A stretch of 64,000 nt of DNA from Promethearchaeota archaeon (GTDB lineage: Archaea > Asgardarchaeota > Lokiarchaeia > Sigyniarchaeales > SOKP01). The position numbers and the translations under genes were made by a program. Below, in pieces: positions 33,684 through 40,968 of this stretch (position 1 is its first letter; each line of letters opens with the position of its first letter). The notes beneath the pieces were generated by a model that saw only the letters and a list, made by a program, of their open reading frames with translations, did no database searches and had not been told where the DNA came from. The DNA lies in the NCBI GenBank assembly GCA_019058445.1, contig JAHPZA010000008.1, positions 1 through 64,000 on the forward strand, given 5' to 3'.

Positions 33684-35045
33684 TTACATTTCTTCTCGTA
33701 ATTTGAGAATTTTCTTTCGTAGTTTTTTAACTCCAGAATCATCCCCACTATAAATTAAAAATCCTTCATGTAATTTCAAAGCTTTTTGATAATAATATAT
33801 CGCATTGATAGAATCTTTATTTTTTTCTGCATTTTCTGCAGCTTCTAAAGCAAAGTCTAATTCCACTTGTTTAGCTTTTTTCTCGGTTTCAAAAAGCAGG
33901 CTCGAGATCTTGTTGATTTCATCCTTTAATTTGAATTTTTTTGCTACAATAAGCGCTTTATTATACTCCTTTTGAGTGATATCAAATGTTGAGGACTTTT
34001 CAGCTGTTTTACCCCTTTTAATAAGATTTTTAATTAACTTTTTTGCTCCTACTTCATTTAAGTCCTCCATCTGCTTTTCTAGCTTAGTTATATCATCATC
34101 GCTTATAATGATTGAAGAAATAGGCTTAATCTTCATCGCTCGTTTTTGATTAGCTTCCTGGCGAACTTCTAGGTTAGAGATCACGGTTTCCAATTGCATT
34201 GGAACGATTATATCCTTATTTAAAAGCTTGTAAATTCCCTGGAGGATTACTTTAGCTTGAATATTTGCAATTTTTTTGACTTTGTCAATCAGAGTATTTA
34301 TATAGAAAAATGATTTTGAACTTAGAGTATCTCTTGCAAGATTAATAATTGCATTTTGAACAGGATCGTTATTAATCTCTTCCAAATACTCAGGTGGGAT
34401 CGCATACGCTAAGGTCATAGGAAATACAAGATTAATGTTGAATGATCTAATGATAAACTCTGCCATAGATTTGGAACTAAAAGCTCCAGAGTTCTTATAA
34501 ATCGCAAGTTGTTCTTTAAATTGAATTTCAAATTCTTGCAAAAAATGTGAGACAAGATTTTTCATATGTCCTGAGGATTTATGGTCAAGGATTAATACTA
34601 TTCTGATATAATCTCCGTTCTTTAGCAACATATTGAATTTTTTATATTGTAGTTCATAAAATGGGTGTTCTAAAGCTGAAACTGAATCTTCACTTAACCC
34701 TTTGCTTGATTCAGAAAAAGTTATGTTTGCCTGAATGAATCCACTTAATAATTCAACTTCTATATCAACAGCAGAAACAGGATAATTTAGAAGAGCTATA
34801 CCGGACTCTATATCCATTAGAATTATATGCTTAATATTTAAAACATCTAAGAAAATCTGCCATATTTTATCTCGTTCTACTTGAAGTCGTTTTTCATCCA
34901 CACTTGTAATCTGCATCTCTGGACTGATTTCAAATCCCATTTTTTCTAGTTTATTTATTATGCATTCTTTACAGAGTTTCGGGGCTTTAGAACAATTTGA
35001 TAAACCACAATCGAATTTTAAACCATTTATGATAAACGTTGCCAT
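33684..35045 (-). CDS. Cys4 motif + longin-like + winged-helix + helical-repeat protein
   Basis: C-x4-C-x6-C-x2-C; longin-type pattern IILMD.ESGI.L...ELLSGFIQA; wHTH ending IYKLL.KDIIVP; TPR-like C-terminus (AIYYYQKAL). Confidence 0.7.
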   Translation of the reverse strand: MATFIINGLKFDCGLSNCSKAPKLCKECIINKLEKMGFEISPEMQITSVDEKRLQVERDKIWQIFLDVLNIKHIILMDIESGIALLNYPVSAVDIEVELLSGFIQANITFSESSKGLSEDSVSALEHPFYELQYKKFNMLLKNGDYIRIVLILDHKSSGHMKNLVSHFLQEFEIQFKEQLAIYKNSGAFSSKSMAEFIIRSFNINLVFPMTLAYAIPPEYLEEINNDPVQNAIINLARDTLSSKSFFYINTLIDKVKKIANIQAKVILQGIYKLLNKDIIVPMQLETVISNLEVRQEANQKRAMKIKPISSIIISDDDITKLEKQMEDLNEVGAKKLIKNLIKRGKTAEKSSTFDITQKEYNKALIVAKKFKLKDEINKISSLLFETEKKAKQVELDFALEAAENAEKNKDSINAIYYYQKALKLHEGFLIYSGDDSGVKKLRKKILKLREEM

Positions 35046-35394: not shown

Positions 35395-36673
35395 TTATTT
35401 TATATCGCTTAAATCTACACCTTTTGTTTCTGCACCATAAAGAAAATTTAAAGGTATTAGCAAAAATAATAAGAGTGCGTAGATTATAAAAGTAGTTCCT
35501 AACCCATAAAATAAGATTAAAGCACTGGCGATTAAGAGTCCAAACGTGATACCAAGAGCATTTAATAAACTTCTAAATCCTAAAGCTGTGCCTCTTTTCT
35601 CCGTGGGTACCAACTCCAATGTAGTCACTCGAAAAATCCCTAATAATCCCCAATAACATACATGAGTTAATGCATATCCTATTTGAACAAGGATATATGC
35701 ATAGGGAGTGAGAGCTCCCCATACCCACATCATAACTGAAATCGGCATTAATGCGGCCCATATATATAATAAAGGTTTTCTTCCGATTCTATCTGCTAAA
35801 ACACCATTTATGGTATAAGCAACTAAAACTGCCAAGATCGTCCATAAAAAAATCAGAGTAATTTGAGATTGACTAAGACTACCCACATCCGAAATATATT
35901 TTTCGAATAGACCTAAATAGATGGTGCTAGCCCCGTAAATTGCACTCATTATTAAAATAGCGGTGTATGGTTCGATTTTCGGTCTTGAAAATAGATTTTA
36001 CCTCATTTAGAAACGATTCTTCTTTTATTGGTTTCTTAATCCCCTCTTTCTTCATCATTTCATATTTCTCTGTCTCCTTAATCGTTAAAAGTATAATTAT
36101 GCAGAGAGGAATACCTAAGAGAATCGGAAAAACCATCATCATTCGCCAATTTGATGTAGTATCTGTAATATATATACTGCGTAAAATTACCATGATAACA
36201 GCACCCACTAATCCTCCAACTAAAAGAATACTAGTAAAGAACATTCGTTTTTCTTTTTTTGATTCTTCATTTATATAGAGAAACCATATATCGGAAAGTT
36301 GAAAAAAATTCAACAGAAAAACAAAGATTACATATTGGACGTAATTCTGCGAAATAATGATCAATAAGCTAGCAATTGCCATACCAGCCACGGTAATCGC
36401 TAACATAATTTTTCTCCCGATTCTATCCGCCGCATATTGATTAAAAAAGATTAAATAAGCACCTACAGACGCAATACTCCCCCCCAAAGCCATAATGGCA
36501 TTTTGCTCATTTACAGAATAATCACTTAAAAATTCTTCAGCAATTTTAGAAGGAAAAGCCCCCACAACTACAGTTGCATAACTATCAAGAATTTCAACTA
36601 GAATTAATATTATTATCAAATAAATAAAATACGCTTTGGTTCTAGATTTTAAATTAGAATTTGTTGGATCCAT
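35395..36673 (-). pseudogene. Frameshifted MFS transporter (ORFs 35927-36673 and 35395-35949)
   Basis: Each half has one ADRIGRK motif. The frame changes near 35970 (…ENR then PYTAILIMSA…). Confidence 0.85.
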
Positions 36674-36862: not shown

Positions 36863-38536
36863 ATGAGCGATAAAGAAATTGATTTGAAAAAAAGGAGTAA
36901 GGAGATATTTGAAGTTATAAAAAATACGACATTCTATTATGCTCCAAGAGGGATTATAATGGGTGTAGGCCTTGAGGAAAAAGAGATTCATAGTAAACCT
37001 TTTATTGGAATTGTAAATACTTGGAACGAGATTAATCCTGGTCATATGCATTTAAGGCAATTGGCTGAAGCAGTTAAGCTAGGCATTGCTGAAGGGGGCG
37101 GAATTCCTCTTGAGTTTAATACTGTAGCACCTTGTGATGGGTGGGCAAATGCAAATATAGGAATGCGTTTTATCCTCCCTCAAAGAGATATAATTGCTGA
37201 TTCAATTGAAGCTATGGTTGAAGCTCATCGACTTGATGCTATAGTCACACTCTCTTCCTGTGATAAAATTAATCCCGGAGTTTTAATGGCCGCAATTCGA
37301 CTGGATATTCCCACAGTATGCGTACCAGGAGGACCTAATCTGTTTGAAGTAGCTTTTACTCCTGGCTATAAAGGAGTAGATGTGAAGAATTATGATGACT
37401 TTCAAAGCAAAACAATGTGTATATCTTGTGCGACTGCTGGAGCTTGTGAATTTATGGGGACCGCCAATACTACCCAATGTCTCATGGAAGCGTTTGGGAT
37501 GACATTGCCCAATGCAGCAACGACACCTGCATTTACTAGAATGAAATATGTAATTGCTAAAAATTCAGGAAGAAGAGTAATGGAATTATTAAAGAAGGGA
37601 ATAACAGCCTCGCAGATAATGACCGAAAAATCTTTAGAAAATGTTATGACGATCGATGCGGCGATTGGTGGTTCGACGAATGCCGCTCTTCATATACCAG
37701 CAATAGCCTATGAAATGGAAATAGATTTTGACATCGAACTTTTTAATGAATATAGCAAGAAAGTGCCTATGATTGTAAATACTTCCCCTTCAGGAGAATA
37801 TGGAGTTGTTGATTTATATAATGCCGGGGGCATTCCAGCAGTAATGAATAGAATAAAGGATCATTTAAATTTAGATTGTATGACTGTATCAGAAAAGCCT
37901 ATAGGGAAGCTCATAAGAAGAGTAAAAATCATGGATGATAGGGTGATTAGACCTTTAGATAATCCCGTCTTTCCTGAAGGAGGGACTGTTATCTTAATAG
38001 GTAATTTAGCTCCTGAATGTGCTGTTGTAAAACAATCTGCAGTAGGAAGAAAGGATTTACTAAAATTCGAGGGTCCTGCAAAAGTATTTAATTCTGAAAA
38101 AGACGCCCTTATTGCATTATCAAAACATGAAATCAAAAATGGAGATGTAGTTGTAGCTCGATATGAGGGACCCAAAGGAGGTCCTGGGATGCCTGAACTA
38201 GTTGCTCTCACCTCTAATCTTATGATTAGACAGGACATGACCGATTATGTATTAATCACCGATGGTAGGTTTTCAGGAGCATCTCAAGGGCCTTGTATAG
38301 GCCATGTCAGTCCTGAAGCATATGTAGGTGGTCCAATTGCTATAGTTCAAGAGGGTGATATTATAAAAATAGATATTCCAAATAAAAGTCTAAATATAGA
38401 TCTTTCCGAGGAAGAAATAAAGAGAAGATTTGAGAATTGGAAACCATATGAAAGAGACATTAAGAGTAAAACCTTGCTAAAATATAGAGCATTAGTGACT
38501 TCAGCGGCAAAAGGTGCCATTTTAAAATTTGATTAA
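36863..38536 (+). CDS. ilvD: Dihydroxy-acid dehydratase (IlvD/EDD family)
   Basis: NEINPGH.HL, CDG, CDK, GAC..MGTANT, GGSTN, GNLAP, RYEGPKGGPGM, TDGRFSG, GHVSPEA. Confidence 0.92.
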   Translation: MSDKEIDLKKRSKEIFEVIKNTTFYYAPRGIIMGVGLEEKEIHSKPFIGIVNTWNEINPGHMHLRQLAEAVKLGIAEGGGIPLEFNTVAPCDGWANANIGMRFILPQRDIIADSIEAMVEAHRLDAIVTLSSCDKINPGVLMAAIRLDIPTVCVPGGPNLFEVAFTPGYKGVDVKNYDDFQSKTMCISCATAGACEFMGTANTTQCLMEAFGMTLPNAATTPAFTRMKYVIAKNSGRRVMELLKKGITASQIMTEKSLENVMTIDAAIGGSTNAALHIPAIAYEMEIDFDIELFNEYSKKVPMIVNTSPSGEYGVVDLYNAGGIPAVMNRIKDHLNLDCMTVSEKPIGKLIRRVKIMDDRVIRPLDNPVFPEGGTVILIGNLAPECAVVKQSAVGRKDLLKFEGPAKVFNSEKDALIALSKHEIKNGDVVVARYEGPKGGPGMPELVALTSNLMIRQDMTDYVLITDGRFSGASQGPCIGHVSPEAYVGGPIAIVQEGDIIKIDIPNKSLNIDLSEEEIKRRFENWKPYERDIKSKTLLKYRALVTSAAKGAILKFD

Positions 38537-38720
38537 TAAAAGAAACAAAAATAATTTCCTATCTATATATGAAGCAATATTTAATATATTGAATTTTTTT
38601 AAATTTTGATAAAAAATAAAAATCTTTTTTTATAAAATTGATTAGCTAAGACTTAAATAAAGCTAATTTCATGTTAAGTTTAGCAATCATGGATTTTAAA
38701 GTACGAGAATATCAAGGTCT

Positions 38721-39854
38721 ATGCTAATTAACCTTAGGGAAATCTATCTAATAGGGGTATTTTATTCAATTGTTATCGGATATCAATTATCTGCTTATTT
38801 TTTTTTACAATATTATAGATATAAAAAAGTAAACCTAAGTTACAATAAAACTCTTCGAATTTATGGTTTAACTACATGTATACTTCTAATGGCATATGTA
38901 TTTCAGACAATACGAGAATTTTATATTACAAAACTCTATTTAAATGAGTTATTCCTAAGAATTAGTATTACCATAATGTTAATTGGAATTGCTCATTTTC
39001 TATTTTCAATATCATCAAAACCCTTTACAGAGATTATGAATTTCATTCCTATTAGAATTACACTCATCTATGTCATTATAGTGATACTGATTCTGCCTTT
39101 TATTAATATATTTTCAGTGATGTTTCTAGTTTTTATTTACACCGGTATGTTGAGTGGTTTTTACGTAATATATTTCCAAGTGAAACTTATTAAGCTTACT
39201 ACTGGGAAGGTAAAAAAAAGTCTTATCTTATTTACAGTAGGATTATTCTTTGCTCTTAGTGGGGTAATGATTTATAATCCTATAATATATGAACGATCTG
39301 AAATGCTTTTTAGTCTAATTTCAATTTTTATGATTCTTACTGGAATAACAATTGATTTCATAGGAATTTACAATTTTCCTGCATTTCTTGAATTCCATTG
39401 GCAAGATAATTTACTTAAGCTATATATCTTTGAAAAGAAAAAATTTAGAGTTCTTTATTCGTTAGACTTTATAACTTTTGATATGAATGGCACTCTTACT
39501 AATGAAGTCAATTCTCCTATCACAAAGAGTATAGAACAACTGTTTTCAAGAGGTATTACAGGAATCGAACAAGTAACAACTCATTTTTTAAATTCAAAGG
39601 AAGAAAAGATTTTAAAAATAAAACAAGGCGATTCTTATATCCTTTTAGAATATGGAGACCCTCCTTTATCTAATATAACTTATGGATTATTAGTTAGGAA
39701 AGATATGCACAGTTTAATGTACTTTTTAGAAAAAATTAAGAATCAATTCCAAGATAAATACAAGTATCTTTTATCCAATTTAGAACTAATTGAGGGAAAT
39801 GAAGAGAAATTTTTTTTGAATTTTATAAATAATATAAAAACAGCTTTAAAATGA
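38721..39854 (+). CDS. 7TM protein with C-terminal longin/roadblock-like domain
   Basis: Seven TM segments, linker FPAFLEFHW, soluble domain LYIF..VLYS...QLFSRGITGI...IKQGDSYILLE...L.YFL..IK..F. Confidence 0.7.
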   Translation: MLINLREIYLIGVFYSIVIGYQLSAYFFLQYYRYKKVNLSYNKTLRIYGLTTCILLMAYVFQTIREFYITKLYLNELFLRISITIMLIGIAHFLFSISSKPFTEIMNFIPIRITLIYVIIVILILPFINIFSVMFLVFIYTGMLSGFYVIYFQVKLIKLTTGKVKKSLILFTVGLFFALSGVMIYNPIIYERSEMLFSLISIFMILTGITIDFIGIYNFPAFLEFHWQDNLLKLYIFEKKKFRVLYSLDFITFDMNGTLTNEVNSPITKSIEQLFSRGITGIEQVTTHFLNSKEEKILKIKQGDSYILLEYGDPPLSNITYGLLVRKDMHSLMYFLEKIKNQFQDKYKYLLSNLELIEGNEEKFFLNFINNIKTALK

Positions 39855-39870
39855 AAATTATCAAGCAACA

Positions 39871-40968
39871 ATGATATTTGAAAATATACAATTTCCAATA
39901 CAAGGTCCATTAAGAGAATTATTATTAATCTTGGAGTGGCTAATTATTTTATTATTTTTCGAAATAGCTATTGTATTTTATGTAAGAGTTAAAAAGCAAA
40001 AAATCAAAAAACAGCCTAATCAGCAAGAAAAAGGCTATGTAATGATGTTTTTAGGATATTCAATTATGTGGATCTTTTGTATTCTGGGTGATTATGCTGC
40101 AGAGAGTAATACTCTCAGAACCTTTTTTTTAAGTATTGGATTTTTCACAATGATGCTCTGCGGGTTAGTATTTTTATACAGAATGGAAAAATCTGAGATA
40201 TTTTTTAAGAGGTTTCTTTTCTCAAAGATATTTGGTATTGTAATAATATTCATCTTCATTAGTGTGATAATAGGTATTGAATCTCCTCGAATTATAGCTT
40301 TTTTATTATTTTACTCTATTTTCTATCTTTTTATGATAATATATCTCATAAAATTTGCTTCAAATCCCTATATAAAAAGCATCCAAAAAAATTTAACTAT
40401 AATGACTTTAACTCTTTTAGTTGGCTTTACGTGTTTAGGGATAGGATTCTTCTTCACAACCGAATATATATTAAACTATTTTGGTTTGGTTTTCAGAGTT
40501 ATTGGTGATATTATTCAATTAATAGGATTTGTGCTTATTAGTGTTTTTTTCTTTAGTGTACCTTCATTAGAGGAGCATGAATGGAGAAAAAGGATTGATA
40601 AACTTTTTATAATGCTTAAATCGGGAATCTGTATTTATCATAAAGGATTTAAAGAAAAACTTAGCGAAATTGATGAACATTCTACTACGGGAGTTATTAA
40701 GAGTATTAATGATATTCTTAAAGAGCTAACTGATAAAAAAGGTATTTCTATCATTGAAAAGACACATAAGATATTTATAATTCAACCAGGTAAATTTATT
40801 ACTGGTTTGTTAATATGCGATCAAGAGTTAAATTCGCTTAAAGTTCTATTAAACAGGCTAATTGTAAATATTGAAGAAATTTACGCTAAAATTATTGAAG
40901 GTTGGAATTTTGAAATAAAAATATTTGAACCAATTGAAGAAATGGCAAAAGAAATCTTTCTATTTTAA
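39871..40968 (+). CDS. 7TM protein with C-terminal longin/roadblock-like domain
   Basis: Seven TM segments, linker VPSLEEHEW, soluble domain LFIM.KSGICIY...DE...TGVI.SI..IL.E...GKFITGLLI. Confidence 0.72.
   Translation: MIFENIQFPIQGPLRELLLILEWLIILLFFEIAIVFYVRVKKQKIKKQPNQQEKGYVMMFLGYSIMWIFCILGDYAAESNTLRTFFLSIGFFTMMLCGLVFLYRMEKSEIFFKRFLFSKIFGIVIIFIFISVIIGIESPRIIAFLLFYSIFYLFMIIYLIKFASNPYIKSIQKNLTIMTLTLLVGFTCLGIGFFFTTEYILNYFGLVFRVIGDIIQLIGFVLISVFFFSVPSLEEHEWRKRIDKLFIMLKSGICIYHKGFKEKLSEIDEHSTTGVIKSINDILKELTDKKGISIIEKTHKIFIIQPGKFITGLLICDQELNSLKVLLNRLIVNIEEIYAKIIEGWNFEIKIFEPIEEMAKEIFLF

Follow-up and report, generated by a model that had tools for sequence, protein, structure and literature searches.

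On balance, we favor the view that two adjacent genes of a Promethearchaeota archaeon (class Lokiarchaeia, order Sigyniarchaeales) encode a membrane-embedded longin heterodimer that docks, and probably regulates, a Rab-like GTPase lacking a lipid anchor. The genes, here called A and B, lie at positions 38,721 to 40,968 of a 64,000-nucleotide stretch of DNA (the window; positions 1 to 64,000 of contig JAHPZA010000008.1, assembly GCA_019058445.1), and each joins a seven-helix (7TM) membrane domain to a C-terminal longin domain. This architecture, the longin fold, the conservation of the pair across genomes and its family-wide linkage to GTPase genes were all computed directly. An original prediction, made from the sequence alone, had read the pair as a heterodimeric membrane receptor acting on small GTPases; it is partly supported, in that the longin fold, the pairing, a predicted heterodimer and linkage to GTPases at the level of the family all stood, while no GTPase gene lies at the window locus or on its contig.

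Results

Two diverged paralogues of the same architecture

As originally predicted, A and B are adjacent, strongly diverged genes separated by 16 bp: BLASTP aligns only 42 residues around the linker between their two domains, at 24% identity (E 0.047). The A-family and B-family profiles can nevertheless be aligned over their whole length (337 columns, 19% identity; hhalign probability 98.7%, E 4e-16), which makes the two proteins old, full-length paralogues. Their homologue sets are separate (14 to 16 proteins each, down to 31% identity) and come entirely from uncultured Promethearchaeota or metagenomes; no Pfam or NCBIfam model matched either protein as a whole.

The AlphaFold2 models bear out the seven transmembrane (TM) helices claimed for each protein, and in both the seven long helices (residues 2-33, 40-68, 72-97, 108-127, 133-159, 162-184 and 194-216 in A) are followed by a domain of the order beta-beta-alpha-beta-beta-beta-alpha-alpha. 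Lysines and arginines counted from the sequence are in excess in loops 1, 3 and 5, with 12 inside against 4 outside in A and 15 on the inner against 3-4 on the outer side in B, and the N-termini are therefore placed outside and the longin domains in the cytoplasm. The two domains are joined by a shared P-x3-E-x2-W motif, also a claim that held: at least 91% of the 54 A-type and of the 58 B-type sequences keep its glutamate and its tryptophan, and the motif is present in single-copy forms of other Asgard classes as well. The A-type motif is conserved throughout (P 100%, E 98%, W 94%), and the proline of the B-type falls below 90%. Elsewhere the two types keep different residues. E22 and E31 (TM1) and R209 (TM7) are conserved in the B-type and not in the A-type, B also keeping E106 (after TM3) and G212 (TM7); the A-type conserves E7, Y31 and N42, which are specific to it, together with F102 and several glycines.

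The C-terminal domains have the longin fold

In B the domain runs through strands 242-249 and 254-259, helix 269-286, strands 293-297, 300-306 and 310-316, and helices 321-343 and 352-363; the tail of A follows the same longin order and has, around its first helix, an insert modeled at low confidence. Exhaustive structural comparison (VIA) gave as best match for the B tail (residues ~240-365) the longin domain of VAMP7 (Z 13.0, root-mean-square deviation (rmsd) 2.3 over 113 residues), followed by Sec22 (Z 12.9), synbindin (Z 12.3), adaptor protein (AP) sigma subunits (Z 11.4-12.2), CPLANE (Z 11.1), the solved Lokiarchaeal longin 8yqg (Z 10.7), Trs23 (3cue_A, Z 10.4) and Mon1-Ccz1 (Z 10.2). For the A tail (~230-377) it gave SRX (Z 11.2, rmsd 2.5 over 109 residues), then CPLANE (Z 10.6), synbindin (Z 10.3), Mon1-Ccz1 (Z 9.4), Bet5 (3cue_C, Z 9.3) and BLOC-3 (Z 9.0). 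Foldseek with the whole model returned nothing at E <= 0.001, and the rows that it listed nevertheless all belong to the longin/Roadblock superfamily.

A Roadblock/LC7 (MglB) identity was considered and rejected: A and B both carry two C-terminal helices, whereas Roadblock domains run alpha-beta-beta-alpha-beta-beta-beta with at most one such helix. It is weakened further by Foldseek, in which MglB and LAMTOR reach template modeling (TM) scores of 0.42-0.57 at rmsd 5-6 against 0.6-0.72 for longins, and the 50 top-ranked VIA rows, for A as for B, hold no Roadblock entry. The longin-like pattern originally read into the last ~140 residues is thus upheld by structure.

At the level of sequence, a profile of the domain (alignment A3) searched against PDB sequences found TRAPPC1/Bet5 (E 0.009-0.018) and also Trs23 and VAMP7, longins making up nine of the ten matches. 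Single members of the family come close to Pfam longin models below threshold (best Sybindin E 1.7e-4; Intu_longin_1 weak in three members). The same genome encodes a free-standing 136-amino-acid paralogue of the domain, P0032, which matches the B-family profile (E 2e-5) and passes the Pfam model Fuz_longin_1 (PF19036; 29.7 bits against a cut-off of 26.1). As modeled, then, the C-terminal domains are longins at the level of fold, with a link to a Pfam longin family that is indirect only, through P0032.

The pair is conserved across Lokiarchaeia

A search of 400 genomes of the phylum finds the family in 206 of them (E <= 1e-10). We fetched 73 loci (numbered with the prefix L below) and used the A-family and B-family profiles to classify every open reading frame (ORF) in them. 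Of the 62 multi-gene units from other genomes, 58 keep A upstream of B on one strand (55 AB, 2 ABAB, 1 ABB), a pairing that the original prediction proposed checking across Lokiarchaeia; the other four comprise three of type BB and an array of six genes (BBABBB). The junction between A and B in relatives ranges from a short overlap to ~125 bp and is mostly shorter than 20 bp. Units from other Asgard classes are mostly single genes (14 solo units). At locus L069 (G128:C5:1284351-1291645), two convergent Rab-like GTPase genes come after a row of six 7TM-longin genes.

Membrane-anchored longins are a wider theme in the genome of the window, whose contigs are denoted C3 to C9 here. It carries a second A-B pair (C6:512990-514872, minus strand), in which the ORF of the A copy is intact yet only 257 amino acids long, with about four helices, and a third 7TM-longin pair with A upstream of B (C9:416510-418984, minus strand). 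The short A copy of the second pair lacks profile positions 73-172, and a CheR methyltransferase gene adjoins that pair. There are also two single 7TM-longin genes (C4:393013-394332 and C3:40116-41189), and the same longin tail occurs on proteins with ~11 and ~12 predicted TM segments (C9:16288-17985 and C4:263044-265314).

A and B are predicted to heterodimerize

Prediction of the full-length A and B complex, the multimer check proposed for the heterodimer originally suggested, yielded an interaction prediction score from aligned errors (ipSAE) of 0.65 across three runs, the best of three controls scoring 0.00; the mark applied to this score is reached by 58 of 80 solved complexes and by 2 of 110 mismatched pairs. 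At least 95% of the contacts agree between runs, with a predicted local distance difference test (pLDDT) of at least 74 for the partner, and heterodimerization of A and B is accordingly predicted by the models. The confident contacts within the membrane are between TM1 of A (residues 7-22) and TM1 of B (16-31). The longin tails are in contact through their central helices and through antiparallel pairing of the strands that follow (A 297-302 with B 293-297), and it is by the central helix that members of the Roadblock/longin fold family dimerize (PMC10933270).

Related pairs are linked to Rab-like GTPase genes

A Rab-like GTPase domain is encoded within 300 bp of 29 of the 62 multi-gene units, where 0.7 would be expected from the density of GTPase genes more than 1 kb from the units (0.018 per kb; 0.019 per kb in the window's own genome), an enrichment of about 40-fold. 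The adjacent genes take four arrangements: 13 upstream on the same strand, 8 upstream and divergent, 4 downstream on the same strand, and 4 downstream and convergent. A Ras/Arf-type gene adjoins the distant orthologous pairs in L001 and L003. Mapped on the B tree, adjacency is present in every major Lokiarchaeial subclade and has changed at least six times on well-supported branches. Most of the adjacent GTPases (21 of 29) group in a single clade of a 131-domain GTPase tree (Shimodaira-Hasegawa-like approximate likelihood ratio test (SH-aLRT) 90), and that clade has one member in the window's own genome.

None of the 29 adjacent GTPases carries a C-terminal cysteine motif for prenylation. At the position of the catalytic glutamine in switch II, glutamate is found (DxxG-E for DxxG-Q) in 17 of 26 pair-adjacent GTPases from L003 and L024-L074, against 19 of 69 others. 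In the adjacent GTPase genes of L024-L031, L042 and L044, the P-loop lies upstream of the first ATG, GTG or TTG; a conserved isoleucine codon about six residues before the 'FKI' strand suggests initiation at ATT or ATA in these genes.

The window's own genome has 87-88 Ras-superfamily matches. Its closest relatives at this locus (L094 and L095, 79% identity) keep the gene order of a 453-amino-acid protein, ilvD, A, B and an FrhB-like gene; in both, a further B-type gene with a GTPase (positions 1-1705) lies ~5 kb upstream of this A-B pair. The window is without this unit, synteny breaking off before it, at ~32346. On the B tree the window copy groups (SH-aLRT 88) with the pairs of L020-L022, in which a GTPase gene lies 0.9-5 kb upstream on the same strand. 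The GTPases of L020-L022 form a clade (support 99) with two pair-adjacent GTPases and an own-genome gene, C6:860514-861059. Because phylogeny groups it with the GTPases of related pairs in this way, this unlinked gene is the best candidate for the GTPase partner of the window pair. Assigning a partner by orthology to the neighbors in L001 and L003 was tried and gave an ambiguous result, the L001 and L003 genes being 48% identical to each other and that of L003 being 49% identical to its best own-genome match.

The membrane domain is receptor-shaped

The membrane bundles superpose (VIA) at Z 10-13 on class C (GABA-B, GPR156) and adhesion G-protein-coupled receptors (GPCRs), a designed GPCR-like fold, Ste2 and rhodopsins, and at similar Z on the adiponectin receptor, alkaline ceramidase and Myomaker. 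The bundle of A reaches Z 12.2 to GABA-B and adhesion GPCR bundles and that of B Z 12-13 to GPCR-like bundles, values which by the comparison tool's own calibration are reachable by unrelated helical bundles. Homology to GPCRs was accordingly not established, since these values lie within the range of unrelated bundles and a sequence link is missing (Pfam 7tm_3: E 0.71, 9.9 bits against a cut-off of 33.5); we call the domain receptor-shaped and claim no more. Both models have very short outer loops and no extracellular domain. An Atlas feature search of the membrane domain returned scores of at most 0.86 and no informative cluster.

A search of 1.84 billion representative proteins with a profile of the membrane domain only (A4) gave 477 clusters at E <= 1e-3, of which 204 reach E <= 1e-10. 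The longin tail is present in 113 of 113 full-length proteins among the best 150 of the 477 clusters, and among these 113 no other output domain was seen on the 7TM module.

The locus

The features of the locus are collected in Table 1. Downstream of B, and convergent to the pair, lies an FrhB/PyrK-like oxidoreductase gene that closes a 2-oxoacid:ferredoxin oxidoreductase operon. Upstream of ilvD, a major facilitator superfamily (MFS) transporter is encoded on the minus strand at 35395-36673 in two overlapping ORFs (184 and 248 amino acids), probably as the result of a frameshift. The syntenic relative L094 lacks this ~1.65-kb block, its 453-amino-acid gene being followed directly by ilvD. The 453-amino-acid protein (33684-35045, minus strand) was excluded from the system: it has no Pfam match and is not among the own-genome matches of the longin-tail profile A3 at E <= 1e-3. 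It is syntenic with the A-B pair in close relatives only.

Table 1. Features of the A-B locus, in window positions (aa, amino acids)
Feature	Position	Strand	Basis or remark
ilvD	36863-38536	+	upstream of gene A, same strand as A-B
AT-rich intergenic region, presumed promoter of the A-B unit	38537-38720	+	between ilvD end (38536) and gene A; sequence inspection
Gene A (P0001), 7TM-longin protein, 377 aa	38721-39854	+	ORF; AlphaFold2 pLDDT 80.5
A seven-helix membrane domain, aa 1-219	38721-39377	+	TM1 is the predicted contact with B (interface residues 1-22)
A linker motif P220-x3-E224-x2-W227	39378-39401	+	conservation in 54 A-type sequences
A cytoplasmic longin domain, aa 228-377 (~150 aa), low-confidence insert 256-295	39402-39851	+	structural superposition (VIA)
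Gap between A and B, 16 bp	39855-39870	+	window sequence
Gene B (P0002), 7TM-longin protein, 365 aa	39871-40968	+	ORF; AlphaFold2 pLDDT 79.9
B seven-helix membrane domain, aa 1-230	39871-40560	+	model; conserved E22, E31 (TM1), D74, E106 (after TM3), R209, G212 (TM7)
B linker motif P231-x3-E235-x2-W238, short helix right after TM7	40561-40584	+	model, family alignment
B cytoplasmic longin domain, aa 239-365 (~127 aa)	40585-40965	+	structural superposition (VIA)

Discussion

A membrane-embedded longin platform

In the mechanism that we propose, A and B would be co-expressed and assemble in the membrane as a heterodimer, their TM1 helices packing together and their longin domains pairing through the central helix and the strand that follows it. 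Such pairing would correspond to the canonical dimer mode of the Roadblock/longin family and would set a platform of two longins immediately beneath the membrane. A Rab-like GTPase may dock on this platform, as in the analogous TRAPP Bet5-Trs23/Ypt1, Mon1-Ccz1/Ypt7 and MglB/MglA; because these archaeal GTPases have no lipid anchor, the platform would tether the GTPase to the membrane, and it would probably control its nucleotide state as well. It is probably through the seven-helix bundles and the P-x3-E-x2-W linker that a membrane or extracellular cue would reach the platform. For the window pair, whose partner would be encoded elsewhere, we infer the docking of a GTPase, and likewise any regulatory or sensory activity, from the family and from these analogies.

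Asgard archaea, with their many longin and Roadblock proteins, encode Rab-, Arf- and Rag-like GTPases by the dozen, and a family of integral-membrane longin heterodimers would offer a concrete, testable answer to how GTPases without lipids reach the membrane and are controlled there. It would also mean that longin pairing of the TRAPP and Mon1-Ccz1 kind, as predicted here, was tied to membranes already before eukaryotes. The window copy is less informative in having no adjacent GTPase, yet the pair has been kept without a linked gene.

Several observations weigh against a GTPase-docking heterodimer. The loci counted are mutually related, so the binomial significance of 29 linked units out of 62 is overstated, and none of the 14 solo units of other Asgard classes has an adjacent GTPase. 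Of the coupling to small GTPases originally proposed, the genomic linkage holds for the family and not for the window itself: no GTPase gene was found on the window's 74-kb contig (C8) with Pfam Ras and a custom profile, tblastn with the GTPase of the syntenic relative found no match there, and the closest relatives are likewise without a GTPase directly beside the orthologous pair. The complex was predicted from full-length chains, each with its own shallow alignment, and its score is the model's own confidence, of which the longin part may reflect likeness to solved longin/Roadblock dimers. Both A and B stay under every Pfam longin gathering cut-off, the tail of B scoring 15.1 bits against 25 for Sybindin (PF04099) and 13.3 against 23.7 for Intu_longin_1 (PF19031). 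Finally, the family alignments show no conserved arginine or other catalytic signature in the longin domains of A or B.

The platform could act as a guanine nucleotide exchange factor (GEF) or as a GTPase-activating protein (GAP): eukaryotic longin pairs include both, and no conserved catalytic residue was found. Longin heterodimers that act as GAPs include FLCN-FNIP and NPRL2-NPRL3 of GATOR1.

Alternative readings

A and B could be tandem duplicates that act separately as homodimers or monomers, their adjacency reflecting shared regulation only. That 14 units of other Asgard classes are solo, so that a lone protein can be functional, fits this reading, as do the units of unequal gene number (ABB, BB, BBABBB) and the A copy cut to 257 amino acids in the genome's second pair. 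We think it unlikely, however, given that the A-then-B order is kept across the class at less than 20% identity between A and B, that the heterodimer prediction reaches 0.65 against 0.00 for controls, and that the residues conserved in A (E7, Y31, N42) are not those conserved in B (E22, E31, R209), which fits divided roles. It is improbable to a like degree that the membrane domain is the working part (a transporter, a channel or a lipid-handling protein) and the longin tail an adaptor or regulator without direct action on GTPases, as in SNAREs or AP sigma. The ~40-fold enrichment of GTPase genes beside related pairs, in four arrangements, and sequence profiles pointing to the longins of TRAPP Bet5/Trs23 and Fuzzy/Mon1, which are GTPase platforms, argue against it, although the best structural matches do include SNARE longins (VAMP7, Sec22) and AP sigma, the same tail sits on 11- and 12-helix membrane proteins in this genome, the window locus has no GTPase, and the bundle resembles the adiponectin receptor, alkaline ceramidase and Myomaker at similar Z.

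Least probable in our estimate is the specific form given to the idea by the original prediction, a GPCR-like, ligand-activated receptor with a longin heterodimer as its GEF, which is a special case of the docking platform favored here. Seven helices with the N-terminus out and the C-terminus in, a linker resembling helix 8 after TM7, superposition at Z 12-13 on class C and adhesion GPCRs, and polar residues conserved inside the helices of B that could form a binding site all speak for it, as does the fact that the longin pairs of TRAPP and Mon1-Ccz1 are GEFs (PMC10933270). Set against these are a Z within the range of unrelated helical bundles, the lack of a sequence link to GPCR families (7tm_3 E 0.71), the missing extracellular domain and very short outer loops; moreover, longin heterodimers can equally be GAPs, and 17 of 26 linked GTPases have glutamate in place of the catalytic glutamine, which may hint at a catalytic residue that is supplied to them and not at exchange. 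The parallel to receptor and G protein is an analogy and not a finding. We would give only a small chance to the broader proposition that A-B is a true receptor, whose bundles would sense a cue through the buried acidic and polar residues of B and pass it by the linker to the platform, which would switch a lipid-free Rab-like GTPase at the membrane. If true, this would be an archaeal receptor-to-GTPase pathway whose parts, 7TM receptors and longin regulators of Rabs, were later used separately by eukaryotes.

Comparison with known systems

Our literature search found no description of a 7TM-longin fusion or of such a pair, the tables of Liu et al. 2021 and of a 2026 structural-clustering preprint (10.64898/2026.10.28.762692) lying outside it, so that a catalogue entry is possible; the text of that preprint names '7TM proteins' of Asgard archaea and a cluster called 'class C GPCR' but gives no particulars. 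The word 'transmembrane' does not occur in the structural survey of Asgard Roadblock and longin proteins and GTPases, which describes the small GTPase genes of MK-D1 as generally not in operons with Roadblock, longin or TRAPPC3 genes (PMC10933270). A longin heterodimer that serves as a GTPase platform is of a known kind; what appears to be new, judging from sequences and models, is its form as an integral membrane protein.

The membrane domains invite comparison with class C and adhesion GPCRs, which share with A and B seven helices in the N-out/C-in orientation and a short helix after TM7, and in which dimerization is obligate or frequent. A and B differ from them in having no detectable sequence relationship and no extracellular ligand-binding domain, and their output would be the fused longin and not a heterotrimeric G protein. 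MglB-MglA and the solved Asgard Roadblock/longin proteins (PDB 9jq8, 8yqg; Tran et al. 2024, PMC10933270) share with A and B the core fold, the dimer through the central helix (predicted for A-B) and the role as partner of a GTPase (proposed for A-B). MglB has the Roadblock order, however, whereas A and B have the longin order with two C-terminal helices, and A and B are fused to membrane domains, whereas the Asgard proteins published so far are soluble or joined to GTPases (PMC10933270).

The tri-longin Rab GEFs (Mon1-Ccz1, the Fuzzy-Inturned pair of CPLANE and Hps1-Hps4 of BLOC-3) are heterodimers whose first longins pair and hold the Rab. A-B resembles them in structure (Z 9.0-11.1 to CPLANE, Mon1-Ccz1 and BLOC-3) and through P0032, which passes Fuz_longin_1; they have three longins per chain and are recruited peripherally, whereas A and B have one per chain and are integral to the membrane. 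A further parallel is the TRAPP core Bet5-Trs23 (TRAPPC1-TRAPPC4), which binds and activates Rab1/Ypt1: like A-B, it consists of two diverged longin paralogues in a heterodimer (predicted in the case of A-B), its subunits are the best sequence-profile matches of the A-B longin domain, and the A-B family is itself linked to Rab-like GTPases. The TRAPP subunits are soluble and need subunits of the Bet3 family, whereas the longins of A and B are each fused to a seven-helix domain and no Bet3/TRAPPC3 partner is implicated.

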